39,913 bases of DNA from a bacterium (GTDB lineage: Bacteria > SZUA-182 > DTGQ01): assembly GCA_049472445.1 (NCBI GenBank), contig JBLIRT010000004.1:1-39913 (forward strand), read 5' to 3'. Shown one piece after another: positions 6,536 to 33,562 of the stretch. Position numbers and translations under genes: made by a program. The first letter of the stretch is position 1; every line of letters begins with the position of its first letter. A model generated the notes under the pieces. It did no database searches. It was given only the letters and a program-made list of their open reading frames with translations, and had not been told where the DNA came from.

Positions 6536-7459
6536 TTGTTGAGGATCCAGCCGATGACGAAAGGTGAAATCCAGTCGATTGAGAACATTATCGGTCAGGT
6601 CCAATCCCTGCCAACCCTCCCCTCACTGGCCCTGGAGGTCATGATGATGGCTGAAAATCCAGAATCATCACTGGCTGATATTGCTCTCATTCTCCAAAAA
6701 GATCCGGCCATAGCCAGTAAAATCTTAAAAATCGCCAATTCCGCCTTTTATGGGTACAGTCGACAGGTTACCAATCTGCAAAACGCTCTCCTGCTCCTGG
6801 GATTACGTGAAGTAAAAACCATCGTCCTCGGCGTCTCCATCGTGAATTTATTTAAGAGTTCCAACTCTGAAGTGGGATACAACCATCAGCTTCTCTGGTT
6901 GCATTCGGCAGCGGTTGCTCAAATTGCCAGATCTCTCGCCTTTAAGGCGAGCCTTTTTGATCTCGAACAGGAAGCCTTTACTGTTGGCCTTATCCATGAT
7001 ATTGGCAAGATCGTTCTTGATCAGTTTCGACACCATGATTTCCTGAAGATAATACACCTTGTTCAAAAAGAGGGAAATCTTACCTTTCTCGAAGCTGAAA
7101 ACCGGATTCTTGGGGTAAACCATGCTCAAATTGGAGGCTGGTTAGCCCAAAAGTGGCTGTTCCCCTCGGATCTGGCAGAAGCGATTGAATATCACCATAA
7201 CCCGCAAGAAAGTAAACATGGCCACCTTTTGGCTTCCCTGGCCCATATCGCAGATATCTTTTGTAAGGCCAAAGATCTTTCCTTTGTTGAAGTATTGAAA
7301 GGTGAATCCATAACTGATAACGGCGGATGGAAGATCATTCAAGAAAATTCCCCCGGGGGCGGTCTTCATTTCGATATTGAACGTTTTACCTTCGGTTTGG
7401 ATGAGGAAATTTCAAAAGCCCAGGAATTTATCACCATTTCCCGAGGCATGGCTATATGA
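6536..7459 (+). CDS. HDOD-domain signalling protein
   Basis: The HDOD signature is present: LPTLPSLALEVMMMAENPESSLADIALILQKDPAIASKILKIANSAFYG, then GLIHDIGKIVL and HAQIGGWLAQKW. The ORF starts at TTG 6536; the ATG at 6554 (MTKGE) with a GAGGAT RBS is the likelier start. Confidence 0.85.
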   Translation: MLRIQPMTKGEIQSIENIIGQVQSLPTLPSLALEVMMMAENPESSLADIALILQKDPAIASKILKIANSAFYGYSRQVTNLQNALLLLGLREVKTIVLGVSIVNLFKSSNSEVGYNHQLLWLHSAAVAQIARSLAFKASLFDLEQEAFTVGLIHDIGKIVLDQFRHHDFLKIIHLVQKEGNLTFLEAENRILGVNHAQIGGWLAQKWLFPSDLAEAIEYHHNPQESKHGHLLASLAHIADIFCKAKDLSFVEVLKGESITDNGGWKIIQENSPGGGLHFDIERFTFGLDEEISKAQEFITISRGMAI

Positions 7460-8346
7460 TGCCGGAAGCGCCCAGGAGAAGGCAGGCTACCTTGGAAGAT
7501 AGCCCTGATAACAGCATACTGATAAAAATTCGAGATTTTATTTACCAGCAAAGCGGTCTCTATTTCTCTGAAAAAAACCTTGATTCCCTCCAAAAAAAAC
7601 TTATCTGCCGGCTTGAATCATTGAACCTGAATTCAATCAACGAATATTACCATTATCTCCTCGACGACTCATCAAGGACATCGGAGTTAAAGCCCCTTTT
7701 TGATTCCTTGATCAATAGCCAAACGAGTTTCTTTCGCTATGCCTCACAACTGAAGGCCTTGCAGGAACAGATTCTGCCAGCCTTGATGAGAAGTAAGATC
7801 CAAAATGAAGAGCAGGTCTTGAAAATTCTCAGCTGCGGATGCTCTACCGGCGAAGAACCTTATACCTTAGCTATTTTAATGCTCGAGACGCTTGGCCAAA
7901 TCATCGACCGGTGGAAGGTTGAGATCACTGGAATAGATATAAGCCACGCTGCTCTCGATGCGGCCGGGCAGGGTATCTACAATCACTATTCCCTGCGGAA
8001 TACCCCTGAGACTATCATGAACCGTTACTTTGATCCTCTGGGACCTGATAGCTATCGCCTTCGGGATCGTGTCCGGGAGATGGTGCATTTTGCCTATTTA
8101 AATCTCAATGATGAAGTCCATATGCGGACTCTTTCGCCTGTAGATGTCATATTCTGCCGCAATGTATTGATCTATTTCAGTGAGGATTCCAAGAGGGCTG
8201 TCATTAATCAGTTCTATAACATTATCAATCCTGGCGGTTACCTTTTTGTCGGGCCGTCAGAATCACTTTTCGGGTTATCCCGATCATTTAAACTGCTCCT
8301 CTTTCCTGGAGCATTGGTCTATAAGAAAGAGAGAGACCCCCCCTGA
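7456..8346 (+). CDS. cheR: CheR-type protein-glutamate O-methyltransferase (orphan)
   Basis: It has a CheR N-terminal helical domain (FSEKNLDSLQKKLICRLESLNL, TSFFR) and a SAM-binding domain (ILSCGCSTGEEPYTLAILM, DVIFCRNVLIYF). Its start overlaps the HDOD stop (ATGA). Confidence 0.85.
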   Translation: MMPEAPRRRQATLEDSPDNSILIKIRDFIYQQSGLYFSEKNLDSLQKKLICRLESLNLNSINEYYHYLLDDSSRTSELKPLFDSLINSQTSFFRYASQLKALQEQILPALMRSKIQNEEQVLKILSCGCSTGEEPYTLAILMLETLGQIIDRWKVEITGIDISHAALDAAGQGIYNHYSLRNTPETIMNRYFDPLGPDSYRLRDRVREMVHFAYLNLNDEVHMRTLSPVDVIFCRNVLIYFSEDSKRAVINQFYNIINPGGYLFVGPSESLFGLSRSFKLLLFPGALVYKKERDPP

Positions 8347-8525
8347 ATTCAAATGGTTCCATGAAAATATATGTATCATTCGATATTATGCAGCTTCCTT
8401 TACAATTGTGTAACTCTTTTGGGCAGAATTCTTCTCACATGCGACTGACTATCGAGCGCTTATAAGGAAAGGAGGTAGGTATCGGAAGGGGCATTTCGAG
8501 ATGAAACCATATTTTTATCCTAATA

Positions 8526-8539
8526 GGCACGCACCTTGC
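8526..8539 (+). promoter_or_regulatory. Sigma-54 (-24/-12) promoter of the formate dehydrogenase operon
   Basis: GGCACGCACCTTGC (followed by A) matches the consensus TGGCACG-N4-TTGCA at every conserved position with exact spacing. It lies 97 nt upstream of the fdnG ATG. Confidence 0.7.
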
Positions 8540-8543
8540 ATTA

Positions 8544-8565
8544 ATATGAGGTCAGATCCTCATAT
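8544..8565 (+). promoter_or_regulatory. Perfect inverted repeat ATATGAGG-N6-CCTCATAT over the predicted transcription start (operator or 5' hairpin)
   Basis: This is an 8-bp perfect palindrome with a 6-nt spacer, starting 5 nt after the -12 element. Confidence 0.4.
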
Positions 8566-8635
8566 ACTTATCCGGCATCTGTGGAACCAACTCGGCCTTT
8601 AAGCTCACGTATAACAAGAAAAGGAGGACATATTT

Positions 8636-11620
8636 ATGGATCTGAGCCGAAGATCTTTTCTCAAAGTATCAGGCGCAGCCACAGCCGGCGCAGCCCTGGG
8701 CTCCCTGGGGTTTGACCTCTCTACCCTGCCGGCGCGGGCAACTCCCCTCAGGATTAATTATGCCAAGGAAACCACCACGGTGTGCCCATATTGTTCCTGC
8801 GGGTGCAGCATTATTGTGCATACGGTGGATGGAAAGGTCGTCAATACCGAGGGAGATCCTGACTCACCAATTAATGAAGGCGCTCTCTGTTCTAAAGGAT
8901 CGGCTCTGTATCAGGAGTCGCATAATGTGCATCGATTGAGTAAGGTACGTTACCGGGCCCCGGGAAGCACCGATTGGGAAGAAAAAGATTGGGATTGGGC
9001 TATAGATAGAATTGCCCACCTGGTCAAGGAAGCCAGGGACACAGGCTTCGCTACCCGAACCCCTGACGGTCTGACGGTCAACAGAACCGAGACTATCGCC
9101 AACCTGGGCGGAGCAGGTCTCAATAATGAGGAATGCTACGCTCTGGCTAAATTCGCCAGAAGCCTGGGGATCGTTAACCTCGATCACCAGGCCCGTATCT
9201 GACACTCCGCTACGGTAGCGGCTCTGGCAGAGTCGTTCGGTAGGGGAGCAATGACCAATCACTGGATCGATCTTAAAAACAGTGATTGTATTATCGTTAT
9301 GGGCAGCAATGCCGCTGAAAACCATCCCATGTCGTTCAGATGGGCACTTCGGGCCAGGGATGGAAGGGGAGCCAAAATCATCAGCGTTGATCCGCGATTT
9401 ACCAGAACCTCAGCCGTAGCTGATATATATGCTCCTTTACGTTCCGGAACAGATGTTGCTTTCACCGGCGGATTAATAAATTACTGTCTTCAAAACAATC
9501 TCTACAATCATGAATACGTCGCTGAATACACCAATGCCGCTCATCTCATTTCTCAAGACTTTTCTTTCCATGATGGCCTCTTTTCAGGCTACGATGAAAA
9601 GAACAGAAAATATAATACCAAAAGCTGGAGCTATCAGCTTGATGATAACGGAGTGCCATTGGAAGACAAGACCTTGCAGGATCCCAACTGTGTTTTCCAG
9701 GTGCTGAAAAAGCATTACAGCCGTTATGATGTCGATACGGTCTGCAAAATTACCGGCACGCCTCGGGAAAAATTCCTGGAAGTAGCCCGCACCTATTGTG
9801 CTACCGGCGCTCCTGATAAGGTCGGAACGATTATGTATGCCATGGGCTGGACCCAGCATACAGTCGGCACGCAAAACATCCGGGCCTTTGCCATACTTCA
9901 GCTTCTCCTCGGTAACATTGGTCTGGCCGGTGGTGGAGTAAACGCGCTCCGCGGCGAGCCCAACGTCCAGGGATCTACTGATCATTGTCTTTTGTTTCAT
10001 ATCATACCCGGATATCTTCAGACTCCGATTGCCAAGGATCAATCGCTGCAGGCTTATCTGGACAGATGCACCCCTGTCTCAAAGGATTCGAAGAGTGTGA
10101 ACTACTGGAAAAATTACCCCAAATTTATAACCAGCCTTCTCAAGGCCTGGTACGGCAGCAATGCCACAGCAGAAAATGATTTCTGCTTCAACCTGCTGCC
10201 GAAAAACTCCGGGAATTATTCCCATATGTCCATTTTCCAAAGCATGTACGAAGGAAAGATCAAGGGACTCTTCTGCTGGGGGCAAAATCCGGCCGTAGGC
10301 GGCCCCAACTCTCTCATGGAGAGAAAGGCCCTGGAGAAGTTAAACTGGCTGGTCTGCACCGACATCTTCGAGACCGAGACTTCCATCTTCTGGAAGCGAC
10401 CTGGGGTAGATCCGTCCGGCATCAAAACCGAGGTCTTTCTCCTTCCGGCTGCAGCCTCCGCTGAAAAGGAAGGCAGCATCAGTAACAGTGGACGGTGGGC
10501 CCAATGGAGATACAAAGGAGAGGAACCGCCGGGAGAGGCTAAATCCGACCTCTGGATGATGAATGCTTTCATGCTCCGGCTGAAAGATCTTTACGCCCAT
10601 GATCCCGGTCCCTTCCCCGATCCTGTGATTAAGCTCTACTGGGATTTCGGCCCGAAAGACAATCCCAGTGCCATTACGGTAGCCAAAGAGATTAATGGAT
10701 ATGATCTGACCACCGGAAAGCTTCTGGATAACTTTACCAAGTGCAACGCAGACGGTACCACAGCCTGTGGTAACTGGCTCTATTCCGGGAGTTTCACCGA
10801 GGCCGGCAATATGATGGCCAGGCGGGGGAAAGAAGACCCCTCCGGAATCGGCCTCTATCCTACCTGGGCCTGGTGCTGGCCGGTGAACCGCAGGATTATC
10901 TACAACCGTGCTTCGTGCGATACCAAGGGCCGGCCCTGGGATCCCAGCCGTGCTGTCATCAAGTGGAACGAAGCGCTCCAGCAATGGGAAGGAGATGTAC
11001 CTGACTATGGCAAAAATGTTCCTCCCGAAAAAAATGTCGGCGCCTTTATCATGAAACCTGAAGGACACGCCCGGCTGTTTGGTATGGGCAACGTGGATGG
11101 CCCGCTTCCTGAACATTATGAGCCGTATGAAAGCCCGGTCAATAATATCCTCTCCTCACAGCAGATCAATCCGTGTGTTTATCTTGGTTACAACACTGAT
11201 ATGGATAAGAAGGGAGATCGAAAGAACTTTCCGGTAGTAGCCACGACCTATCGGATTACCGAGCATTGGCAGACTGGTGTTGAAACCCGGTGGCAGCCCT
11301 GGCTGTGCGAGCTCATGCCTGATATGTTTGTTGAGCTTTCCAGGGAATTGGCCGGCGAGAGGGGGATCCATAACGGCGACCTCTGCACCATCTCATCAGC
11401 TCGAGGATCGATCAAAGCCGTGGCCGTGGTAACCGGCCGTTTCAAACCCTTCCAGATCAACGGACAGACAGTCCATCAAATAGGACTCCCCTGGTGTTAT
11501 GGATATGCAGGACTGGCTACCGGAGATTCGGCTAATGTACTTACCGCCAATATTGGGGATCCCAACACAAGGATACCTGAATATAAGGTATTCCAGTGTG
11601 ATATCAGGAAGGGGGTGTAA
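8636..11620 (+). CDS. fdnG: Formate dehydrogenase (FdnG/FdoG-type) catalytic subunit: molybdopterin-binding, Tat-exported, selenocysteine at TGA 9200-9202
   Basis: A GGAGGA RBS precedes the start and the Tat signal MDLSRRSFLKVSGAATAGAALG. An N-terminal FeS motif CPYCSCGCS follows. ORFs 8636..9202 and 9251..11620 are in the same frame. Read-through of the TGA gives DHQARI-U-HSATVAALAESFGRGAMTNHW, which aligns with the E. coli FdnG Sec site (QARVUHGPTVASLAPTFGRGAMTNHW). Confidence 0.9.
9200..9240 (+). other. Selenocysteine UGA codon plus candidate SECIS hairpin region
   Basis: The in-frame TGA at 9200-9202 is followed by the local stems CCGCTA-CGG-TAGCGG (9207-9221) and CTC-TGGCA-GAG (9222-9232). 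The exact SECIS fold was not verified. Confidence 0.6.
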
Positions 11621-11626
11621 GAGAAT

Positions 11627-12430
11627 ATGAGCAAGGCACGAATCGGCATCTTAATAGATACTTCCCGATGCATAGCCTGCCGCGCTTGCCAGGTAGCCTG
11701 CAAGCAGTGGAACAAATTGCCGGCTGAACCCAGAGAGACCTGGAAAAACCGTGGAAGTTATGAAAACCCTGCCAGTCTGTCTCCTCAAACATGGACACGG
11801 GTGCGCTTTACCGAGGTAGATACGGCCGAAGGCAGCACTGAGTGGCTCTTTCGTAAAACCCAATGTATGCAGTGCGGGGATGCAACCTGTCTCATGGTCT
11901 GCCCGGAAAAAAAGGCGCTCTACCGGAACGAGGATGGAATTGTCATTCTGAACAGCGACTATTGCACGGGATGTGGATATTGCACCCAGAACTGCCCCTT
12001 TGAAATTCCTCAATACCATGCGCAGGATAAGAGGACTTTTAAATGCAGTATGTGTTACGACCGGGTGGGTAACGGCTTGATCCCTGCATGTGCCAAGGCC
12101 TGCCCGACGCAGGCCATAAAGTTCGGCGGCCGTGATGAGCTCATTGAAGAGGCACATCGGCGAGTGGATGAACTGAGGCTGAAAGGGTACAAGGAGGCAT
12201 CTCTTTACGGAGAGAGCGAATGCGGCGGCCTTGGAGTAATGTATGTTCTGAAGTATGACAAGAGCAAATATGAAGGGCTGCCTGCCAATCCGCAGGTCCC
12301 CCTTTCGGTCAAACTCTGGCGCGATTGGCTCAAACCGGTGGGACTGTTATCAGTCCTGGCCGGCCTGGGCTTTGTAATCTTCCATTATGTCTTGCACGGG
12401 CCCAAGATGACGGAAAAGGGAGGTGATTAA
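11627..12430 (+). CDS. fdnH: Formate dehydrogenase iron-sulfur (beta) subunit with a C-terminal membrane anchor
   Basis: It contains several 4Fe-4S ferredoxin motifs (CIACRACQVAC, CMQCGDATCLMVCP, CTGCGYCTQNCP, CSMCYDR...CAKACP) and a hydrophobic C-terminal helix. It starts 6 nt after the fdnG stop. Confidence 0.9.
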   Translation: MSKARIGILIDTSRCIACRACQVACKQWNKLPAEPRETWKNRGSYENPASLSPQTWTRVRFTEVDTAEGSTEWLFRKTQCMQCGDATCLMVCPEKKALYRNEDGIVILNSDYCTGCGYCTQNCPFEIPQYHAQDKRTFKCSMCYDRVGNGLIPACAKACPTQAIKFGGRDELIEEAHRRVDELRLKGYKEASLYGESECGGLGVMYVLKYDKSKYEGLPANPQVPLSVKLWRDWLKPVGLLSVLAGLGFVIFHYVLHGPKMTEKGGD

Positions 12431-12432
12431 TC

Positions 12433-13074
12433 ATGATGGATTACGGCAAGCTTAACCTGGTAAAGGTTACCAGTTGGATTGAACGGCTGGCCCATACTTT
12501 CCTGACCATAAGCTGGATGCTTCTGGTATTTACCGGCCTGGCCTTTTACTCCAAGAAATTTGCCGTTTTTGCCGAGTTTTTCGGCGGGCTTCGTCCCACC
12601 GTTACGGTACATAACTATACCGGCCTCGTCTTTCTCTTTTCAGTAGCGCTGATATTCCTGGCTATGTTTAAGGAGTCCTTCAAGTTTAACAAGGACGACA
12701 TCAAGTGGGTCCTCGGCGCCGGCGGGTATTTATGGAAGGCCGATGTACCGGAATCAGGCCGATTTAACCCCGGACAAAAGGGAATGTATTTTTTCACGGT
12801 CATCATGGGCATCGTTATGGGTGTTACCGGATGGACCATGTGGCACGCCCCAACGGCCAGTTACAACCAGCTCTGGGTAAACATCTGCTATCCGGTGCAC
12901 TCTCTGGGGGCCATTATCTTTGTGGCTGCCTGGATGGTCCACGCTTATTTTGGCAGCATCTGTAACCCGGGCAGTGTAGCCTCCATGACTTACGGTTGGG
13001 TAACCAGGCCATGGCTGCGCAAGCAGCATATGAAATGGTATCAGGAGCACGTTGAAAAAAAGCTGAACCCGTAG
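12433..13074 (+). CDS. fdnI: Formate dehydrogenase cytochrome b (gamma) subunit
   Basis: The 213-aa ORF has four hydrophobic helices with conserved His residues (TVHNYTG, PVHSLGAIIFVAAWMVHAYFG). It is in the FdnI position. Confidence 0.85.
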   Translation: MMDYGKLNLVKVTSWIERLAHTFLTISWMLLVFTGLAFYSKKFAVFAEFFGGLRPTVTVHNYTGLVFLFSVALIFLAMFKESFKFNKDDIKWVLGAGGYLWKADVPESGRFNPGQKGMYFFTVIMGIVMGVTGWTMWHAPTASYNQLWVNICYPVHSLGAIIFVAAWMVHAYFGSICNPGSVASMTYGWVTRPWLRKQHMKWYQEHVEKKLNP

Positions 13075-13142
13075 CCAAACAGGAATTCGCTGTCAGATAT
13101 CGGGCGTAAGGACCGCCAGGGCCTGTCATTATCAGATGAATC

Positions 13143-13171
13143 TTGCGGTCCTTGCGCCTTTAGCTTATAAT
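13143..13171 (+). promoter_or_regulatory. Sigma-70-type promoter candidate (TTGCGG-N17-TATAAT) ahead of tatA
   Basis: The -10 hexamer TATAAT at 13166-13171 is perfect. A weak -35 (TTGCGG, 13143-13148) sits at 17-bp spacing. Confidence 0.35.
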
Positions 13172-13235
13172 GAGTGTTCAACTTGGTCGTGGAATATATA
13201 TCTTTCTTGAAAAATATGTGATGGAGGATGTGATT

Positions 13236-13463
13236 ATGTTTGATCAACGGCTTCTGGCAATGTTTGGTATAGGAATGTCTGAATTACTTATCATCATGGT
13301 CATCGTTCTGATCATCTTTGGGGCCGGTAAGTTACCTGAAATTGGCAGCGCCCTGGGAAAGGGGATCAGGAATTTTAAAACCGGCGTCACGGGAAACGAA
13401 TCCGAAGATAAGGCACCTCAATCAAAAATCGAAACTCACCAGGAACAAAAAAAACTGGAATAA
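13236..13463 (+). CDS. tatA: Twin-arginine translocase subunit TatA/E
   Basis: The sequence [48 protein letters not shown] shows the TatA transmembrane helix, the FG hinge and the amphipathic helix. A GGAGGA RBS precedes ATG 13236, although the ORF is open from 13170. Confidence 0.85.
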
Positions 13464-13478
13464 CCAGGGCTGATACCT

Positions 13479-14474
13479 ATGCTCGATGCCCACCAGCGAA
13501 TCATTAACTATATCCGCGTCTCTGTTACTGATCGATGCAATCTGCGATGCATCTATTGCCAGCCGGCCAGGGAATTTCATCAATTAGCCAGGTCAGAAAT
13601 CCTCTCTTATGAGGAAATCCTCCATCTTGTCCAAATAGCCATTTCCTGCGGGATAACCAAGGTCCGCCTCACCGGAGGTGATCCTCTGGTGCGAAGGGAC
13701 ATTGTTGATCTGGTGAGGTCAATCGCCCGGCTGAAAGGTATCACCGATGTATCTCTGACCACCAATGGAATACTCCTCGATCGACTGGCCGGGGACCTCT
13801 ACCGGGCCGGCCTCCGCAGAATAAATATCAGTCTTGACTCACTGAAAAGAGACCGATTTCAAATGATTACCGGTCAGGATGGACTCGATCAGGTTCGTAA
13901 GGGCATAGATAAGGCTCACAGCCTTGGCTTTTCACCCATTAAGATCAATACGGTGGTTATAAGGGGAGTAAATGATGATGAGGTTCTGGATCTGGCCAGA
14001 TTGAGCCTCAATAAGCCGTATCATATCAGGTTTATTGAATTCATGCCGATAGGAAACGATCAGCTCTGGCAGGAAAAAAAGTATGTCTCCTGCCTTGAAA
14101 TACAAAAAATTCTCACCTCCTTTCAGCCTCTCATCCCCTCAGCCGCAGCCGGCCCTCACCACAGCCATCATCATGGGCCTGCTCAAATGTTCGAATTTGA
14201 GGGAGCGTTGGGCAAAATCGGGCTCATCAGCCCCTTAAGTAATCATTTTTGTTCCAACTGCAACCGGATCAGGCTGACTGCTGACGGCAGGGTGAGGAAC
14301 TGCCTCTTTTCGGATCAGGAAATCGATATACGAGAGGCTTTACGATCAGGAAAAAATGATGAAGAATTGAAGGCCTTATTGATTCAGGGTATCAAAAATA
14401 AACCGGCCGGGCATAACCTCGATCATGCCCAATTCACCATCTTAAACCGGCCAATGTCTAAAATCGGTGGTTAG
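13479..14474 (+). CDS. moaA: GTP 3',8-cyclase (molybdenum cofactor biosynthesis protein A)
   Basis: It carries the radical-SAM motif CNLRCIYC near the N-terminus, the C-terminal cluster CSNCNRIRLTADG and the terminal GG typical of MoaA. Confidence 0.9.
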   Translation: MLDAHQRIINYIRVSVTDRCNLRCIYCQPAREFHQLARSEILSYEEILHLVQIAISCGITKVRLTGGDPLVRRDIVDLVRSIARLKGITDVSLTTNGILLDRLAGDLYRAGLRRINISLDSLKRDRFQMITGQDGLDQVRKGIDKAHSLGFSPIKINTVVIRGVNDDEVLDLARLSLNKPYHIRFIEFMPIGNDQLWQEKKYVSCLEIQKILTSFQPLIPSAAAGPHHSHHHGPAQMFEFEGALGKIGLISPLSNHFCSNCNRIRLTADGRVRNCLFSDQEIDIREALRSGKNDEELKALLIQGIKNKPAGHNLDHAQFTILNRPMSKIGG

Positions 14475-14512: not shown

Positions 14513-17074
14513 ATGACTCAGGAACAAAGCGTACCCCAACCAGGACAACATATACCGAAACCGGAGCTATTTCAGTCGGTCTCTGAAGCAGTATGGGCCC
14601 AGTTGCGAGATCTGTTTGTTTTGAAAAAATTTCAGGCCGGTGAAAAAATTCTGGCCCAGGGGTCCAGAGAGACTCAATTTTTCTATATTGTTGCCTCCGG
14701 CCAAGTCGAAATACTCATTGATGACGAAGAAGGATGCCAACTGCATCTGTCATATGTTTTCCCCGGTGACTATTTTGGTGAAAGGGCTCTATTAGATGAA
14801 GAAAAAAGCTCTTCCACGGTTATAGCCCGGGAAGATACTGAAGCCTATATTCTTTCCAGGGGGCATTTCTACCAGTTCCTGACCGACCACCCTGATCTGA
14901 GCCGTCACTTTATCTGGACCCTTTCCCAGCGGATGCACAAAACCAATCTTCTCCTGGAAGAATATGAATATAAAAAGGCTATGATCGACCTCATTTCGGA
15001 AGAATCCGAGGCCTATCAAAATGTACCTATTGTCACCAAAACCAGGAGCATGAAGCGGGTACTCGAGATTATCAACTCTTCGGCTGAAAATCTGCTGCCT
15101 GTTCTCATTGAGGGCGAGTATGGCAGCGGGAAGCAGTTAATCGCTTATCAGATCCACCTGAAATCGGCCAGGCGTAAGAAAGCCTTTATCACCCTTGATT
15201 GCCGTACCCTGACCGAGCCCAATTGGCAGGATATCCTTTTCGGACAGGCGACTCCTCGCCCCCTGCACCTCAAGGAACATACCTTCGGCTCTATCGAACT
15301 GGCTGAGGGAGGAACCCTCTATCTGAAACATTGTGACCTGCTCCCCCTTGAAATCCAACAGAAAATCAAAGAGATTATCCAGGAAAGGACCTATAGCCGG
15401 CTCGGCTCTACCAAAAAAAGAAAGGCTGACCTTCGCCTTATTGCCTCAACTCGAGAGGATCTCAGGAAACACCGTGATCAGGGGACCTTTGATGCCGGAC
15501 TCCATGAATTACTGACCGCCAACCCGGTCATACAGTTACCGACGCTGCGGGAGCGAAGGAGCGATATCCTCCAGTTGGTTGAGTACTTTATAGCCAAATA
15601 CGCCAAACTGGCTAATAAGGATATCACCGGTATCACTCCGGAGGCCAGGAATAAACTGATAAGGCACGATTATAAGCTGGCCAATGTCAAGGAACTGGAG
15701 CAGATCATTGAGCGAGCCGTATCTCTGTCCAGCGATAACCAGATCTGGACGCGGCATCTGTTCCTTGGGGAGCCGGCCGTCAAGCCCGATAATTGGTATT
15801 ATAACCTGTTAAAAATCGAACCATTCGGCCGATGGGTGAAAGAAAAGATCTATCCGGATAAGCTTCAATACCTGACGGCCACTTTTTTTCTGCTCATTAT
15901 CCTCCTGTGCTTCCTCGGACCGGCCTCGGCCGGCAAGAATCCCGCCATTCCTCTCGTCTGGGGGATCTGGTGGCCCCTTATGTTCCTTTCCTTTTTCTGG
16001 GTAGGGCGCAGCTGGTGCTCGATATGTGCTTATGCAGCTTACGGGCGGATTGTTCAAAAAAGAAAACATTTTAATATTCCCGTTCCTTCCTTTATTCAAA
16101 GGCACGATGCCATTCTGGTAACGGCGGCCTTTCTCATCACCCTCTGGGCTGAGGAAATAACCCACATGCGCTCCTCTCCCCGGGCCACAGGCTGGCTCAT
16201 GGCCACCATGCTCTCCATCGCTCTTGTTTGTGCGGTTATCTTCCGCAGGGAGAGCTGGTGTCGATATCTTTGCCCCATGGGAGGATTAATCGGAGTCTGT
16301 TCCATGAGCTCAGTCATTGAGTTACGCTCAGACACAACCGTCTGTTCCACTCAGTGCAAGAAAACGGAATGCTATAACGGGACCCCGGAAAGTCCCGGCT
16401 GTCCTCTCTTTCAGCATCTTTTATTCGTTGACAACAACCAGACCTGCAAGCTTTGTCTGCAATGCATCCGCAATTGCCCGAATCAGTCAGTTTCCTTAAA
16501 CCTTCGCCTCCCCGGGCGGGAAATATGGCTGTCGAATCAGGTCCGGGATAAAATGTCCTATTTTGTCTTGGCCTTATTAGGATCCGTTCTGCCGGTCATC
16601 TACCTTTCAGCCAACCACCTGAGCCTCCATTCAGGGAAGGCCAGGATATATTATTCCCTGGTCCATTTCCTTCTGCCGGTTGTTCTCTACCTTCTCCTCC
16701 TGATTCCCGGCTGCTTTTATTCGCCCAGAACATGGAAGAGTCATATCTGGCCCCGTTTCTGGCGTACTTCCTACGCCTATATTCCCTTAGCCCTGACTGC
16801 GCATCTTGCTTACCAGATGCAATATCTCCCCTGGGGGAAAGATCTCGGCTATTCTTTTCATGTATTCCATAAGGAAATATGGCAGGGACTGGCCATTCAA
16901 CCCTTCCAGGTTCTTTCTCTGCTGGCGGGACTGCTCTTTTCATACTTTTGTCTGTGGGAAATTTATAAGCATCGGGGAAAAAGCTTTGAGGCAGGATGGG
17001 CCTTCTGGCTTGGACATGCCTCCCTTATGATGAGCTACGCAGCCCTGGCTCTTCGCTGGCTGGTCTTTCCGTAG
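14513..17074 (+). CDS. Fusion protein: cNMP-binding domain + degenerate sigma-54-interaction AAA+ domain + multi-pass membrane polyferredoxin (NapH/NosR-like) domain
   Basis: Roughly aa 20-140 form a Crp-like cNMP-binding fold (FPGDYFGERALL). Roughly aa 175-405 align with NtrC-type AAA+ domains (Walker A GEYGSGKQ, LPTLRERRSDI), but GAFTGA is absent (the equivalent reads QATPRPLHLKEHT) and Walker B DE is replaced by KH (GGTLYLKHC). Roughly aa 450-853 contain about 9 hydrophobic helices with CSIC, WCRYLCPMGG, CSTQCKKTEC and CKLCLQCIRNCP motifs. There is no C-terminal HTH. Confidence 0.75.
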   Translation: MTQEQSVPQPGQHIPKPELFQSVSEAVWAQLRDLFVLKKFQAGEKILAQGSRETQFFYIVASGQVEILIDDEEGCQLHLSYVFPGDYFGERALLDEEKSSSTVIAREDTEAYILSRGHFYQFLTDHPDLSRHFIWTLSQRMHKTNLLLEEYEYKKAMIDLISEESEAYQNVPIVTKTRSMKRVLEIINSSAENLLPVLIEGEYGSGKQLIAYQIHLKSARRKKAFITLDCRTLTEPNWQDILFGQATPRPLHLKEHTFGSIELAEGGTLYLKHCDLLPLEIQQKIKEIIQERTYSRLGSTKKRKADLRLIASTREDLRKHRDQGTFDAGLHELLTANPVIQLPTLRERRSDILQLVEYFIAKYAKLANKDITGITPEARNKLIRHDYKLANVKELEQIIERAVSLSSDNQIWTRHLFLGEPAVKPDNWYYNLLKIEPFGRWVKEKIYPDKLQYLTATFFLLIILLCFLGPASAGKNPAIPLVWGIWWPLMFLSFFWVGRSWCSICAYAAYGRIVQKRKHFNIPVPSFIQRHDAILVTAAFLITLWAEEITHMRSSPRATGWLMATMLSIALVCAVIFRRESWCRYLCPMGGLIGVCSMSSVIELRSDTTVCSTQCKKTECYNGTPESPGCPLFQHLLFVDNNQTCKLCLQCIRNCPNQSVSLNLRLPGREIWLSNQVRDKMSYFVLALLGSVLPVIYLSANHLSLHSGKARIYYSLVHFLLPVVLYLLLLIPGCFYSPRTWKSHIWPRFWRTSYAYIPLALTAHLAYQMQYLPWGKDLGYSFHVFHKEIWQGLAIQPFQVLSLLAGLLFSYFCLWEIYKHRGKSFEAGWAFWLGHASLMMSYAALALRWLVFP

Positions 17075-17561
17075 CCTGTCCCACCACCCATCTGGCCGGA
17101 CATCCATCCAGTTCCCGGCAGGCCCTGCAGCCCAACGTGGCGTGCTCCGTTAAAAGACCTCCGAGAATACCTATCAGCCCCGCTCCCAGCCAGATGCTCT
17201 GGCTGTCCCCCCAGAAAGCCATCCGCCATAAGGCTCCTCCAAGGGGGAGAAGGCCAAGGGGAAGGAGAAAGACGTTGTGCCATATCCCGTCGGTGAAGGC
17301 ATGGCGGGGATCCTTCCGGTAGAGCAGGCCGGCCACGAGCCCAAAACCGGTGCTGCATCGCCGTCCGTGATAAAAGCAGCGGGTACAGCGCAACCTGGGC
17401 ATAATGAAAAGAGCCGCCGCCAGGCAATAGAGGGCATAAAATACGGCCAGACCCGCATGCAGCCCGCCGAGAATCCATATCCCGAGGCCGAACAGGCTGA
17501 GATTAAACATATTACGCAGAAAAGGCACATGGAAGGGATAATTTTCAAGGTCTCTCATCAT
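17025..17561 (-). CDS. Hypothetical small integral membrane protein with two Cys clusters
   Basis: The 178-aa ORF has about 4 hydrophobic helices and the motifs CTRCFYHGRRC and CRACRELDGC. It is markedly GC-rich, with several overlapping shadow ORFs in the track. Its 3' end overlaps the convergent 853-aa gene by 50 bp. No recognisable family. Confidence 0.5.
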   Translation of the reverse strand: MMRDLENYPFHVPFLRNMFNLSLFGLGIWILGGLHAGLAVFYALYCLAAALFIMPRLRCTRCFYHGRRCSTGFGLVAGLLYRKDPRHAFTDGIWHNVFLLPLGLLPLGGALWRMAFWGDSQSIWLGAGLIGILGGLLTEHATLGCRACRELDGCPARWVVGQATERPASEEPGLRSSS

Positions 17562-29704: not shown

Positions 29705-30193
29705 CTATGGTCCGCTGCTTTTCATGGAAAGGGCGATCATGCCTGTCCTGGCCATCTCATCAATGCCGAAGGGGCTGAGCAGACGGACCATGTTCTGAAG
29801 GACCCGTTCGGTTCCGGATAATTCCAGAGTCAGGGTATCTTCCGACATATCGACAATTTTGGCCCCGAAAACATTTGCAATTTCAATCACTTCGCTACGG
29901 GATCGAGTAGTCGTGGTCCTCACCGTAATAATGGTCAATTCCCGGGTAATAGCCTGATTATATTTCAAGTCAGTTACCTGCAGGACATCCACCAGTTTAT
30001 TGGCCTGCTTCATCACCTGATCCAAGACCTTCTCATCTCCCGCGACGACAATCGTTATCCGTGTAACTTCCGGATTTTCAGTCACTCCGGCGGCCAGACT
30101 TTCTATATTATAAGAGCGACGGGTAAACAGTCCTACGACATGTGACAACACGCCGGGATGGTTCCGTACTAAAACAGAGATAATGTGTTTCAT
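29705..30193 (-). CDS. ilvN: Acetolactate synthase small (regulatory) subunit, copy 1
   Basis: It has an ACT domain (HIISVLVRNHPGVLSHVVGLFTRRSYNIESLAAG) and a C-terminal domain (EMARTGMIALS). Its start overlaps the stop of the upstream large subunit (ATGA). Confidence 0.88.
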   Translation of the reverse strand: MKHIISVLVRNHPGVLSHVVGLFTRRSYNIESLAAGVTENPEVTRITIVVAGDEKVLDQVMKQANKLVDVLQVTDLKYNQAITRELTIITVRTTTTRSRSEVIEIANVFGAKIVDMSEDTLTLELSGTERVLQNMVRLLSPFGIDEMARTGMIALSMKSSGP

Positions 30194-31875
30194 GTATCTT
30201 CCCTATCCATCATTTCATTAATTGCTCCCCCTGGAGGTACCATGGGGTAGACATTTTCTTCCTGGTCAACGTGAAAGTCGATAATTACCGGCCTATCCAG
30301 CTCAATGGCCTTCTGAACGGCTGAAGGAACCTCGGAAGGCTTCTCAACCCGGATGCCTGCCGCCCCGTAACCCTCGGCAATCTTGACGAAATCAGGATTC
30401 CCATTCAGGGGGGTCTGCGAATATCTCTTCCCGTAAAAGAGTTCCTGCCACTGCCGCACCATACCCAGATATCCATTATTTAAAATAGCCACCTTCACGT
30501 TCACCTTATTGTGAACCGCAGTGGCCAGCTCTTGAATATTCATCTGGAAGCTGCCATCCCCGGCAATATCGAAAACGATACGTTCCGGGCAGCCGATCTT
30601 GGCCCCTATGGCGGCAGGGAATCCATAACCCATGGTTCCGAGTCCTCCGGAGCTGATGAAGGTGCGGGGCTCAGTGCATTTATAGTATTGAGCCGCCCAC
30701 ATCTGGTTCTGCCCCACCTCTGTGGTAATAATAGCCTTGCCGCCGGTCAGCTCATAGATTTGCTCCACTACATATTGAGGGCAAATGATCCCCTCCCTTT
30801 TCCTGTAAGATAAGGGGTAGTCCCTTTTCCATCGATTCACCTGCTCCAGCCACCCGGATGGAGACTGCTCTTTCACTCTATCATGCAACTCGGTGAGAAC
30901 TTCTCTGGCATCTCCCAGGAGAGAGGCATCAACGTTGACAATTTTCCCGACCTCAGCCGGATCTATATCAATATGGATGATTTTTGCTTTCGAAGCAAAG
31001 GCTGAAATCTTACCGGTCACCCGATCATCAAACCTTGCTCCTACAGCCAGGAGTAAATCAGATTCGGATACCGCGTAGTTGGCATACCGGGTTCCGTGCA
31101 TGCCAAGCATACCCAGACTCAACGGGTGTGCATCAGGAAAGCCTCCCTTGCCCATGAGAGTCGTGGTTACCGGTATAGATGCCTTCTCGGCCAGCATCCG
31201 CAGTGCCTCGTGGGCACCGGCTGTAATGATACCCCCTCCGGCGTAAATAACCGGTCGTTGGGCTTTCTGGATCAAGGTGATGATCCTTTCCATCTGCTTT
31301 TCACGATCTCTGAAGGGATACGGATACAGAGTTTTTTCAGGTAAGGTCAGCTCGGGAATAGGCGGATTGGCAATCTCATTCGTTTGTATATCCTTGGGAA
31401 GGTCAATGAGAACCGGTCCCGGCCGGCCGGTTTTCGCCAGGTGAAAAGCCTCATACATCACCTGTTTCAACCGTGACGTCTCCTTGACCAGGTAATTATA
31501 TTTGGTGACAGGTATGGAAATCCCATAGATATCTGCTTCCTGGAAGCTGTCATTTCCCAGCATATGCGTTGGAACCTGGCCGGTAAAGGCAACCAGGGGT
31601 ATAGAATCCATGGCGGCAGTGGCTAATCCGGTCACCAGATTGGTGGCCCCCGGCCCCGATGTGGCTATCACTACCCCTGTTTTCCCTGTGGCCCGGGCAT
31701 ACCCGTCCGCTGCATGGATCGCTCCCTGCTCGTGTCGCGAAAGGATATGGCGGATCTTGGCACTATACAGCTCATCATAAATAGGCAATAATACCCCGCC
31801 GGGATAGCCGAAGATGGTATCCACGCCTTGTTCGAGCAGGGTTTCCACGAATATCCTGGCTCCTGTCTTTTTCAA
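30190..31875 (-). CDS. ilvB: Acetolactate synthase large (catalytic) subunit, copy 2
   Basis: Thiamine-diphosphate enzyme motifs are present: [49 protein letters not shown] and [12 protein letters not shown]. Confidence 0.93.
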   Translation of the reverse strand: MKKTGARIFVETLLEQGVDTIFGYPGGVLLPIYDELYSAKIRHILSRHEQGAIHAADGYARATGKTGVVIATSGPGATNLVTGLATAAMDSIPLVAFTGQVPTHMLGNDSFQEADIYGISIPVTKYNYLVKETSRLKQVMYEAFHLAKTGRPGPVLIDLPKDIQTNEIANPPIPELTLPEKTLYPYPFRDREKQMERIITLIQKAQRPVIYAGGGIITAGAHEALRMLAEKASIPVTTTLMGKGGFPDAHPLSLGMLGMHGTRYANYAVSESDLLLAVGARFDDRVTGKISAFASKAKIIHIDIDPAEVGKIVNVDASLLGDAREVLTELHDRVKEQSPSGWLEQVNRWKRDYPLSYRKREGIICPQYVVEQIYELTGGKAIITTEVGQNQMWAAQYYKCTEPRTFISSGGLGTMGYGFPAAIGAKIGCPERIVFDIAGDGSFQMNIQELATAVHNKVNVKVAILNNGYLGMVRQWQELFYGKRYSQTPLNGNPDFVKIAEGYGAAGIRVEKPSEVPSAVQKAIELDRPVIIDFHVDQEENVYPMVPPGGAINEMMDREDT

Positions 31876-31891: not shown

Positions 31892-33562
31892 TCAGGATAA
31901 AATCATCTCAGCCAGTCCTGCACCCGCAGGAACCATAGGAAAGACATTCTCCTCACGCGCTACTCGAAAGTCGATTACTACCGGCTTCTTGACCGAAACA
32001 GCCTCGGCAATGACCGAGCTGATTTCGCTGGGTCTCGTGGCCCGCAGCCCTACAGCTCCATAAGCTTCAGCCAATTTCACAAAATCGGGCGCAACTTCCA
32101 TTGGTGTAGCCGAATACCGCTTGTTCATAAACAATTCCTGCCACTGCCGAACCATTCCCAGGTACTGATTATTGAGAATAGCTATCTTAACCGGCACCTG
32201 GTATTGGACCGCGGTGGCCAACTCCTGGGAAACCATCTGGAAACTCCCGTCTCCTGCAATATCGAAAACGATCCGGTCAGGACAGGCTATCTGAGCTCCG
32301 ATGGCCGCCGGAAAGCCAAAGCCCATGGTTCCCAGCCCCCCGGAAGTTATCAATGTCCGGTCGGCATTGAATTTATAATAATGAGCAACCCACATTTGAT
32401 GCTGTCCTACCTCCGTGGCGATAATAGCCTTATCGTTAACCAGTCTGTAAATCTCCTCTATCACGTATTGAGGCTTGATAACTTCCTCACTCTTCTGATA
32501 AGAGAGGGGAAACTCCTTTTTCCATGCTTCAATCTGCTGGAGCCAGGCTGAATAATCACCCGGAATGACAGCTTCATTGATCTTTTGCAGGGTCAGTCTG
32601 GCGTCTCCGACAATGGGTAAATGGACCTTAACGCTTTTACTGATAGCCGCCGGATCAATATCTATGTGAATATATTTGGCCTTTGATGCAAATTTGGCCA
32701 GATTTCCGGTAACCCGGTCATCAAACCGGGCGCCAACCGCAATAAGTAAATCACACTGGGTCACCGCCAAATTGGCATACTTGGTTCCATGCATACCCAG
32801 CATGCCCAGAAACAGTGGATGATCCCCCGGTATGCCGCCCAGCCCCAAAAGGGTGTTGGTAACCGGAATTCCGGCCTTTTGAACAAAGGCCAGTAATTCT
32901 TCCATAGCTCCGGAGCGAATAACTCCTCCGCCGGCATAAATGATAGGGCGCTTAGCCTTGTTAATCAGCTTCAGGGCCGCCTCAATTTGCCTGGGATGTC
33001 CTGTGTAATTCGGCTTATACCCTCGGATCGACACCTGTGATGGATACTGAAAGTCTGTCTCGTCCATGAGGACATCCCTGGGAAGATCAACCAGGATCGG
33101 TCCGGGTCGTCCGGTTTGGGCGAGATAAAAGGCCTCTTTTATAATCCCGGCCAGATCCTTCACCCGGCTGACCAGGTAATTATGTTTCGTAATGGAGCGG
33201 GTGATTCCTACGATATCTGCCTCTTGAAAGGCATCATTACCGATCATGCTGGTCGGAACCTGACCGGTAAAGGCAACCAGTGGAATTGAATCCATATAAG
33301 CGGTAGCCAGTCCGGTCACGATATTGGTCGCTCCGGGGCCGGAGGTTACCAGACAAACGCCCGGTTTTCCGGATGCCCTGGCATATCCGTCGGCTGCATG
33401 AATCGCTCCCTGCTCATGGCGGACCGTAATATGCTGGATATCCGGCTCATCATACAGACAGTTATAAATTCCCAAAATGGCAGCACCGGGAAAGCCAAAG
33501 ATATGCTTTACTTTCTCCTCTTTCAGACTCCGCACAAATATTTCCGAGCCGCTGATTTTCAA
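31892..33562 (-). CDS. ilvB: Acetolactate synthase large (catalytic) subunit, copy 1
   Basis: It has the same full AHAS motif set as copy 2 ([53 protein letters not shown]). By eye it is roughly two-thirds identical to copy 2. Confidence 0.93.

Follow-up and report, generated by a model that had tools for sequence, protein, structure and literature searches.

Bacterial enhancer-binding proteins such as NtrC, PspF, and ZraR are built around an AAA+ alpha/beta subdomain followed by a lid (PF00158 and PF25601), to which an N-terminal sensor is linked via a helix. Their AAA+ domain carries a P-loop, the GAFTGA motif that contacts sigma-54, the Walker B pair DE (D107 and E108 in PspF), and two arginine fingers (R162 and R168 in PspF), and a helix-turn-helix (HTH) of the HTH_8 type is common, although not universal, among them. 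According to a published account, ring assembly is regulated through the N-terminal domain in most of these activators (PMC3791423). Atypical activators that lack GAFTGA, some of them also lacking the consensus Walker B, are established as well (VpsR, TyrR, HupR, HsfA, PhhR, and NtrX) and do not remodel sigma-54; all those that have been characterised retain the HTH and act on DNA (PMC6158489). The polyferredoxin membrane proteins of the NapH/MauN/NosR/CcoG group (Fer4_5, COG0348) present four transmembrane (TM) helices followed by cytoplasmic CxxxCP-type and ferredoxin-type cysteine motifs, and for one of them, CcoG, cupric reductase activity and two [4Fe-4S] clusters have been described (PMC7558416). 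Here, we analyse a protein of 853 amino acids (aa) that joins components of both kinds, encoded at positions 14513-17074 of the forward strand in a bacterial genome of the lineage SZUA-182 (assembly GCA_049472445.1, contig JBLIRT010000004.1, positions 1 to 39,913, the whole of this 39,913-nucleotide (nt) stretch being referred to below as the window). In this protein, an AAA+ domain of the sigma-54 activator type has lost its catalytic and sigma-54-contacting residues, and a 9-TM putative iron-sulfur membrane domain stands in the place of the HTH.

The open reading frame (ORF) starts with ATG 38 nt past the end of moaA (position 14474) and encodes, in this order, a cyclic-nucleotide-binding (CNB) fold, a degenerate sigma-54-type AAA+ domain with its lid, and the 9-TM polyferredoxin membrane domain (all the features of the ORF given below are on the forward strand). 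Pfam matches corresponded to cNMP_binding at aa 38-125 (PF00027; E 3.8e-20; 72.1 bits for a cut-off of 27.5), Sigma54_activat at aa 173-334 (PF00158; E 4.7e-33), AAA_lid_14 at aa 346-416 (PF25601; E 5.5e-16; 15548-15760), and a sub-threshold Fer4_5 at aa 559-592 (19.8 bits for a cut-off of 22). No HTH_8 match was found by Pfam in the 853-aa ORF, where the lid is followed by the membrane domain instead, and an HTH was also absent from the Pfam scans of nine diverse relatives, in line with the lack of a DNA-binding HTH proposed from the letters of the DNA in an earlier annotation, the sequence-only reading. The three-module architecture put forward in that reading is real, as judged by the Pfam matches and the TM model, and every motif quoted in it was found in the ORF (LPTLRERRSDI, for instance, starts at aa 342), with exact coordinates in the case of the Walker A motif and with nt ranges displaced by 6-9 nt for two other motifs. 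A long linker helix (aa 127-169, 14891-15019) seen in the AlphaFold secondary structure joins the CNB fold to the AAA+ domain, and a conserved juxtamembrane segment with an NLL motif (aa 417-445, 15761-15847; 69-79% identity among orthologues) bridges the soluble and the membrane parts. The full-length AlphaFold model reached a mean predicted local distance difference test (pLDDT) score of 73, with values of ~85-90 for the AAA+ part.

The AAA+ alpha/beta subdomain (aa 173-340, 15029-15532) is 30-34% identical to enhancer-binding proteins, and its AlphaFold model was matched by Foldseek to the AAA+ domains of NtrC1, FlrC, and PspF with target-normalised template modelling scores of 0.85-0.91; the top hit that covered the linker helix was 1ny5, the inactive receiver-linker-AAA+ dimer of NtrC1. 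The fold of the alpha/beta subdomain and the lid, the collinearity, the P-loop, and an N-terminal sensor linked via a helix are all shared with the enhancer-binding proteins, whereas GAFTGA, the Walker B DE, and the equivalents of R162 and R168 are missing. The Walker A motif GEYGSGKQ (aa 201-208, 15113-15136) retains the intact GxxGxGK pattern. In HMMER alignments to structural references (ZraR, 1ojl; NtrC4, 3dzd; PspF, 2bjv), the L1-loop region LFGQATPRPLHL (aa 242-253, 15236-15271) aligned beneath LFGHEKGAFTGA, with TPRPLH at the position of GAFTGA, and GGTLYLKHC (aa 266-274, 15308-15334; GGTLYLKHCD extending to 15337) aligned beneath GGTLFLDEI, with KH for DE. The loss of both motifs, which had been proposed from a by-eye alignment with NtrC, was thus reproduced, and further losses were added to it: in the arginine-finger region FDAGLHELLT (15488-15517), the equivalents of PspF R162 and R168 are D and L, and in the sensor II region ANVKELEQ (15680-15703) a Lys replaces the Arg.

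These losses are common to the relatives of the protein, as revealed by the alignment of 107 family sequences with six canonical reference activators. A Walker B DE pair was found in none of the 107 (KN, EN, RH, and KH being the commonest replacements) and in all six references, and no GAFTGA-like motif was present in any of the 107, the references showing GAFTGA in five cases and GSFTGA in one; a single family subclade carries GAFSFA or GAFAIS at this position. At the R162 position, the family mostly has D, S, N, or H, and Arg is never one of its common residues; at the R168 position, R occurs in 7 of the 107 sequences. Both positions are R in the six references. The Walker A GxxGxGK, canonical in all the references, was canonical in 72 family sequences, those of the clade of the window protein included, and non-canonical in the other 35. 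Few parts of the protein are less conserved than the alpha/beta subdomain, with 54-57% identity among orthologues that are 63-67% identical overall, a value similar to that of TM helices 5-9. Because the subdomain is still conserved to this extent, the motif losses are ancient, shared, and stable rather than signs of a domain in decay, and this pattern points to its being kept for a role other than the ATP-driven remodelling of the sigma-54 holoenzyme. In agreement with the sequence-only reading, the loss of GAFTGA and of the Walker B DE makes it very unlikely that the domain hydrolyses ATP or contacts sigma-54 in the canonical way.

The membrane domain (15848-17071) was modelled by AlphaFold from a deeper alignment (pLDDT 84.8, predicted template modelling score 0.85), which shows nine predicted TM helices, the fourth of them (TM4) followed by a small ferredoxin-like insert. 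Its cysteines are arranged as a CxxC (C502 and C505, 16016-16027) in the cytoplasmic loop after TM2, a NapH-type CxxxCP (C583, C587, and P588, 16259-16276) after TM4, with the weak Fer4_5 match just upstream, and eight cysteines in the insert (16343-16480), the latter forming two four-Cys motifs predicted to be cytoplasmic, one non-canonical (C611-x3-C615-x4-C620-x9-C630-P) and one canonical (C645xxC648xxC651xxxC655P). In number, the eight cysteines of the insert would be enough for two [4Fe-4S] clusters. All twelve are 100% conserved across 66 aligned sequences, in fused and stand-alone forms alike, and the iron-sulfur (Fe-S) segment is the best-conserved part of the protein (87-91% identity among orthologues). 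The Cys-bearing loops and the AAA+ domain are all predicted to lie on the same side of the membrane because of the positive-inside count, with 26 Lys plus Arg residues in the predicted cytoplasmic loops and 4 in the other loops. The C-terminal TM helices were also considered for a bis-His haem site, which was ruled out; the histidines concerned, H764 and H835, are conserved in 44% and 32% of the sequences, respectively, and such a site is unlikely because they are not conserved.

When compared with NapH-type proteins, the membrane domain shows a similar succession of four TM helices and predicted cytoplasmic CxxxCP-type plus putative ferredoxin-type motifs and differs from them in its first Cys motif, CxxC instead of CxxxCP, in five extra C-terminal TM helices, and in the addition of a regulatory N-terminus of ~430 aa. 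The NCBIfam matches were weak (NapH, 4.9e-6; NapH/MauN, 9.4e-5; NosR, 5e-3), and no CcoG match was found in NCBIfam for the domain of the window protein. Relatives score above the Fer4_5 threshold, among them P0010 and P0168 with 49.2 and 48.1 bits. On the basis of these matches, the domain falls within the NapH/CcoG-type (Fer4_5) superfamily without fitting any of the named families. A protein called FesM, reportedly described in 2005 by Xu, Liu, and Zhao as a cyanobacterial multi-pass membrane Fe-S protein that also has a cNMP domain and is needed for cyclic electron flow, is what we take to be the nearest precedent, presumably without an AAA+ module. No description of the domain make-up of FesM was found in the literature, and a protein search with a FesM-named sequence returned Chloroflexi proteins only and no cyanobacterial one; these Chloroflexi proteins, of ~500 aa and with no Pfam record, are distant relatives that match 38% of the membrane domain (E 1e-15).

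The fused architecture turned out to be widespread. A word-indexed protein search identified 12 clusters with the full architecture, and an exhaustive HMMER scan with the membrane domain gave 1588 matches at E < 1e-3, 321 of them at E < 1e-30. When the 150 best representatives of clusters built at 50% identity were examined, a sigma-54-type AAA+ region was seen on the N-terminal side of ~106 of them, whether or not the cNMP fold was also present. The modules, said in the sequence-only reading not to occur together normally, are in fact joined in a large and phylogenetically broad family. With each species represented by a single genome, a scan brought up at least 397 related stretches, and the counts at the locus level given below for neighbours, activators, and copper genes correspond to the best 80 of them. 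These 80 loci include Desulfobacterota (Desulfomonile, Desulfocapsaceae, Desulfobulbales, and the cultured Desulfosediminicola flagellatus IMCC35005), Bacillota (the cultured Desulfotruncus alcoholivorax DSM 16058, Thermincola, Peptococcaceae, and Thermaerobacter), anammox Planctomycetota (Scalindua and Brocadiaceae), and also Nitrospirota, Acidobacteriota, Armatimonadota, and Dehalococcoidia. In a further difference from NapH-type proteins, nap, nos, and cco genes (napAB, nosZ, ccoNOQP) were detected neither in the window nor among the conserved neighbour groups of the 80 loci.

Pfam analysis of diverse members of the family showed that the dead AAA+ domain, the lid, and the Fer4_5 membrane core are constant, and that the N-termini are variable, with cNMP, GAF, FHA+GAF, HisKA+receiver, cNMP+GAF, or Zn-ribbon+FHA+cNMP arrangements. 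Such variable inputs on a constant core would be analogous to the input-to-output logic of one-component regulators. Two proteins, P0121 and P0137, consist of the lid and the membrane domain alone. No description of this architecture was found in the literature: each of its parts is of a known kind, and degenerate activators are known, but we found none described as membrane-anchored, HTH-less, and fused to a NapH-type polyferredoxin. In addition, another ORF, 861-944 aa long, that matches the sigma-54-type AAA+ domain and has neither GAFTGA nor DE lies within 1.3-2.3 kb of the first in three of the loci (L020, 6020-8809; L034, 3564-6398; L050, 10305-12890), and these second ORFs look like tandem paralogues of the family.

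The N-terminal module of the window protein is a Crp/PKA-type CNB fold (aa 20-145, 14570-14947), which also gave PDB sequence matches to PKG, PKA, and Crp. The sequence-only reading had taken it for a cNMP sensor. The Crp fold is indeed present; the Arg that binds the cyclic phosphate (R82 in CRP, R209 in PKA RI-alpha) is replaced by Ser in the equivalent of the phosphate-binding cassette, GDYFGERALLDEEKSSSTVIA (aa 85-105, 14765-14827), and it is absent throughout the clade, including the six close orthologues whose sequences extend into the CNB alignment. Among the 82 family sequences scorable for both this Arg and Walker A, the Arg was present in 24, typically in a GEPRSASV-like cassette, of which 6 had a canonical Walker A and 18 a degenerate one, of the GTEK or GTEV type; where the Arg was absent, Walker A was canonical in 45 and degenerate in 13 (counts not corrected for phylogeny). 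This anticorrelation suggests that one nucleotide site may be kept, or used, per protein.

Homologues of the membrane domain alone were found as proteins of 430-480 aa in Actinobacteria and other groups, with 28-34% identity over 81-100% of the domain. The closest full-length relatives are "4Fe-4S binding proteins" of 450-480 aa, such as those of Cellulomonas soli and Nocardioides pacificus, which have the 12 cysteines in common with the fused proteins and lack the N-terminal regulatory modules. That the membrane domain is functional by itself is evident from these stand-alone homologues. At four actinobacterial loci, the stand-alone gene is preceded by one for a small protein that begins with a hydrophobic segment and is anchored at its C-terminus (L007, 6488-6931; L089, 4444-4971; L090, 4290-4991; L091, 4633-5001), Met/His/Asp-rich in at least two of the four and with seven MAGMDHDE repeats in L089. 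Three of these four loci also have copper-homeostasis genes close by, namely those of a multicopper oxidase and a P-type ATPase in L089, CsoR, CopZ, and a CopA-type ATPase in L090, and a DUF305 protein in L007. A CcoG-like, copper-related role is suggested for this stand-alone actinobacterial clade by the small Met/His proteins and the copper genes that adjoin its members.

In our opinion, the window protein and its relatives could be input-regulated membrane polyferredoxins in which the dead AAA+ domain serves as an assembly or allosteric transducer, a proposal to which we give a little less than an even chance of being right. The arguments for a polyferredoxin as the regulated output are the variable inputs on a constant core, the autonomy of the membrane domain, the conservation of the Fe-S insert, and the loss of GAFTGA, the HTH, and the catalytic residues. 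A redox function has a precedent in CcoG, and the predicted topology, with all the Cys loops facing the AAA+ side, is compatible with the proposal. The Fe-S membrane domain would be the effector, an electron-transfer or reductase module working between the cytoplasm and the membrane or the quinone pool, and it would take the place that the HTH output has in a genuine activator. The N-terminal sensor, of the Crp type here and of the GAF, FHA, or HisKA+receiver types elsewhere, would set the oligomeric or conformational state of the AAA+ domain, and the latter, without performing mechanical work and possibly binding a nucleotide through its intact P-loop, would switch the membrane redox domain. 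Such a transducer would parallel the ring assembly controlled by the N-terminal domain in most genuine activators (PMC3791423). The direction of signalling, the regulated oligomerisation, the occupancy by Fe-S clusters, and a redox substrate are inferred components of this proposal.

Several results weigh against it. The direction of signalling is taken from the order of the domains, and the Fe-S domain could equally be a second sensor. Sensing of cNMP by the window protein is doubtful because the phosphate-binding Arg is missing. The scores of the membrane domain fall below the curated cut-offs of all the models concerned (NapH, 25.8 bits for 234; TIGR02163, 22 for 213; NosR, 15 for 1000; Fer4_5, 19.8 for 22), and Foldseek found no solved structure with its fold in the PDB (best E 0.27). 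The copper linkage of the stand-alone actinobacterial proteins is not seen for the fused family, with a P1B-ATPase in one of the 80 loci. Finally, the clustering of the neighbour ORFs of the 80 loci revealed no universal partner gene, so that no donor, acceptor, or pathway is indicated; the conserved neighbours were housekeeping genes (hisD, gidB, icd, prs) kept in synteny at the level of single lineages, and a two-component pair in Desulfomonile.

A second explanation, which we consider unlikely although far from negligible, is a membrane-anchored, DNA-independent atypical regulator of the VpsR/TyrR/NtrX kind, whose AAA+ domain would bind a second messenger or ATP and signal to a cytoplasmic partner, the Fe-S domain being a redox sensor. 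The established activators without GAFTGA offer precedents for it (PMC6158489), and further points in its favour are the intact P-loop of this clade and the tendency of the cassette Arg and the P-loop to exclude each other (18 and 45 sequences versus 6 and 13). However, the characterised precedents are soluble proteins that all keep the HTH and act on DNA (PMC6158489), whereas this family has a membrane polyferredoxin instead, has no HTH, and has also lost both arginine fingers. Moreover, there is no conserved partner gene nearby, and the 12 invariant cysteines are common to stand-alone, non-regulatory homologues, which argues for a catalytic or electron-transfer role over a purely sensory one.

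The hypothesis of the sequence-only reading was a membrane-tethered decoy or anti-activator, in which the dead AAA+ domain would poison activator rings or sequester sigma-54 and so couple the redox or Fe-S state and a ligand to transcription. It can draw on a domain that is clearly derived from activators and has kept their fold, on the expectation, from the AAA+ mechanism, that subunits without arginine fingers would poison mixed rings, and on NosR, a NapH-type protein still labelled "transcriptional regulator NosR" in NCBIfam. The genomic context offers a suggestive case in three Desulfomonile loci (L023, L026, and L030), where the gene immediately upstream, on the same strand and separated by 94-168 nt, encodes a receiver-AAA+-HTH activator with GAFTGA and DE and is itself preceded by that of an sCache-HAMP-PAS histidine kinase. 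However, canonical GAFTGA-bearing activators were found within 6 kb in only 6 of the 80 loci, that is, in 781 kb of flanking sequence, or ~1 per 130 kb, which by our own estimate is roughly the genomic background for activator-rich phyla; in the window itself, as the sequence-only reading stated, none is present, since tblastn with a canonical activator matched this ORF only. The sigma-54 contact is lacking in every one of the 107 aligned sequences, and the non-canonical P-loops of 35 of them are hard to square with a nucleotide-dependent co-assembly. The alpha/beta subdomain, on which a decoy would depend, is among the parts conserved least, and the Fe-S segment is the one conserved most; in addition, the stand-alone homologues imply a membrane domain that is functional by itself. 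With the context, the GAFTGA position, and the conservation pattern all failing to support it, and with the adjacency to formate dehydrogenase genes being unique to this genome (see below), we regard the decoy as improbable. If it were true, sigma-54 would be subject, in hundreds of genomes of anaerobes, to a novel level of control in which the membrane redox or Fe-S state and a cytoplasmic ligand directly throttle transcription.

An artefact, in which an assembly or frameshift error had joined a soluble regulator to a NapH-like protein, as the sequence-only reading had contemplated, found no supporting point and can be set aside with near certainty, because the fusion is authentic, appearing uninterrupted in 80 independent genome loci and in ~106 cluster representatives, with the junction at aa 417-445 conserved at 69-79% identity among orthologues. 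The probability that is left corresponds to some unrelated function.

If the family does consist of input-regulated polyferredoxins, an activator AAA+ ring would have been reused as a non-catalytic transducer for a membrane redox enzyme, in a one-component system whose output is electron transfer and not transcription, and a regulatory handle would become available on the poorly understood NapH/CcoG-type polyferredoxins. The family is present in sulfate reducers, anammox Planctomycetota, Nitrospirota, Acidobacteriota, and Bacillota, and the cultured hosts Desulfosediminicola flagellatus IMCC35005 and Desulfotruncus alcoholivorax DSM 16058 make the question tractable. Some members bear database names such as "sigma 54-interacting transcriptional regulator" or "transcriptional regulator with AAA-type ATPase domain", and judging from their motifs this annotation is misleading, as the proteins should be able neither to contact sigma-54 nor to bind DNA.

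Regarding the neighbouring genes, the window contains, upstream of the ORF, genes for an FdnG that most likely contains selenocysteine, and for FdnH, FdnI, TatA, and MoaA, the last of them (moaA, 13479-14474, +) immediately adjacent, an adjacency that neighbour comparison showed to be specific to this genome. No intrinsic terminator-like site was found on the coding strand in the 38-nt gap between moaA and the ORF. The sequence-only reading had proposed that the protein could couple quinone-pool or Fe-S status to the expression of formate dehydrogenase. In the locus L004 (GCA_040752695.1), which encodes an orthologue 66% identical and shows synteny on both sides, the upstream genes are those of DUF4292, TPR, and HEAT-repeat proteins, the HEAT-repeat gene being directly followed by the orthologue, and the downstream side carries an ORF of 178 aa together with genes for a cytochrome c, two ABC exporters, and a GT4 glycosyltransferase. 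The whole block HDOD-cheR-fdnGHI-tatA-moaA (window positions 6536-14474) is missing from L004, an insertion or deletion difference of 8 kb on account of which a functional link to formate dehydrogenase or moaA was rejected. In L005, genes of haem biosynthesis lie upstream, and the downstream genes are as in L004; L001, L003, and L006 have unrelated gene surroundings. No formate dehydrogenase gene was detected among the conserved neighbour groups of the 80 loci, and the proposed coupling is not supported. A neighbour cluster labelled "MoaA" in Desulfobulbales corresponded to an unrelated radical-SAM/SPASM protein encoded on the other strand.

The promoter that the sequence-only reading called a textbook sigma-54 promoter is a -24/-12 match, AGGCACGCACCTTGCA, at positions 8525-8540, ~95 nt upstream of the fdnG start and with one mismatch. 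It is a good and well-placed match, yet chance alone would be expected to yield one of this kind in each window (at least one was found in 61 of 100 shuffles). The FdnG-type catalytic subunit itself (8636-11620) appears as two listed ORFs divided by an in-frame TGA (9200-9202) within QARI-U-HSATV; because this TGA occupies the usual position of the selenocysteine, fdnG most likely encodes a single selenoprotein with a twin-arginine translocation (Tat) signal.

On the opposite strand, a convergent ORF of 178 aa (17025-17561, -) overlaps the 3' end of the gene by 50 nt and encodes a Cys-rich membrane protein with the motifs CTRCFYHGRRC and GCRACRELDGCP. It is 69-77% identical in L004 and L005, above the conservation of the polyferredoxin ORF itself, lacks a Pfam match, was not found in the fetched part of L001, and has a promoter-like site of its own (17598-17569). 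Finally, farther downstream in the window, the large subunit of acetolactate synthase, a thiamine pyrophosphate (TPP) enzyme, is present as a pair of tandem paralogues at positions 30190-31875 and 31892-33562 (-), within an ilv cluster that also includes the small subunit, ketol-acid reductoisomerase, and dihydroxy-acid dehydratase.

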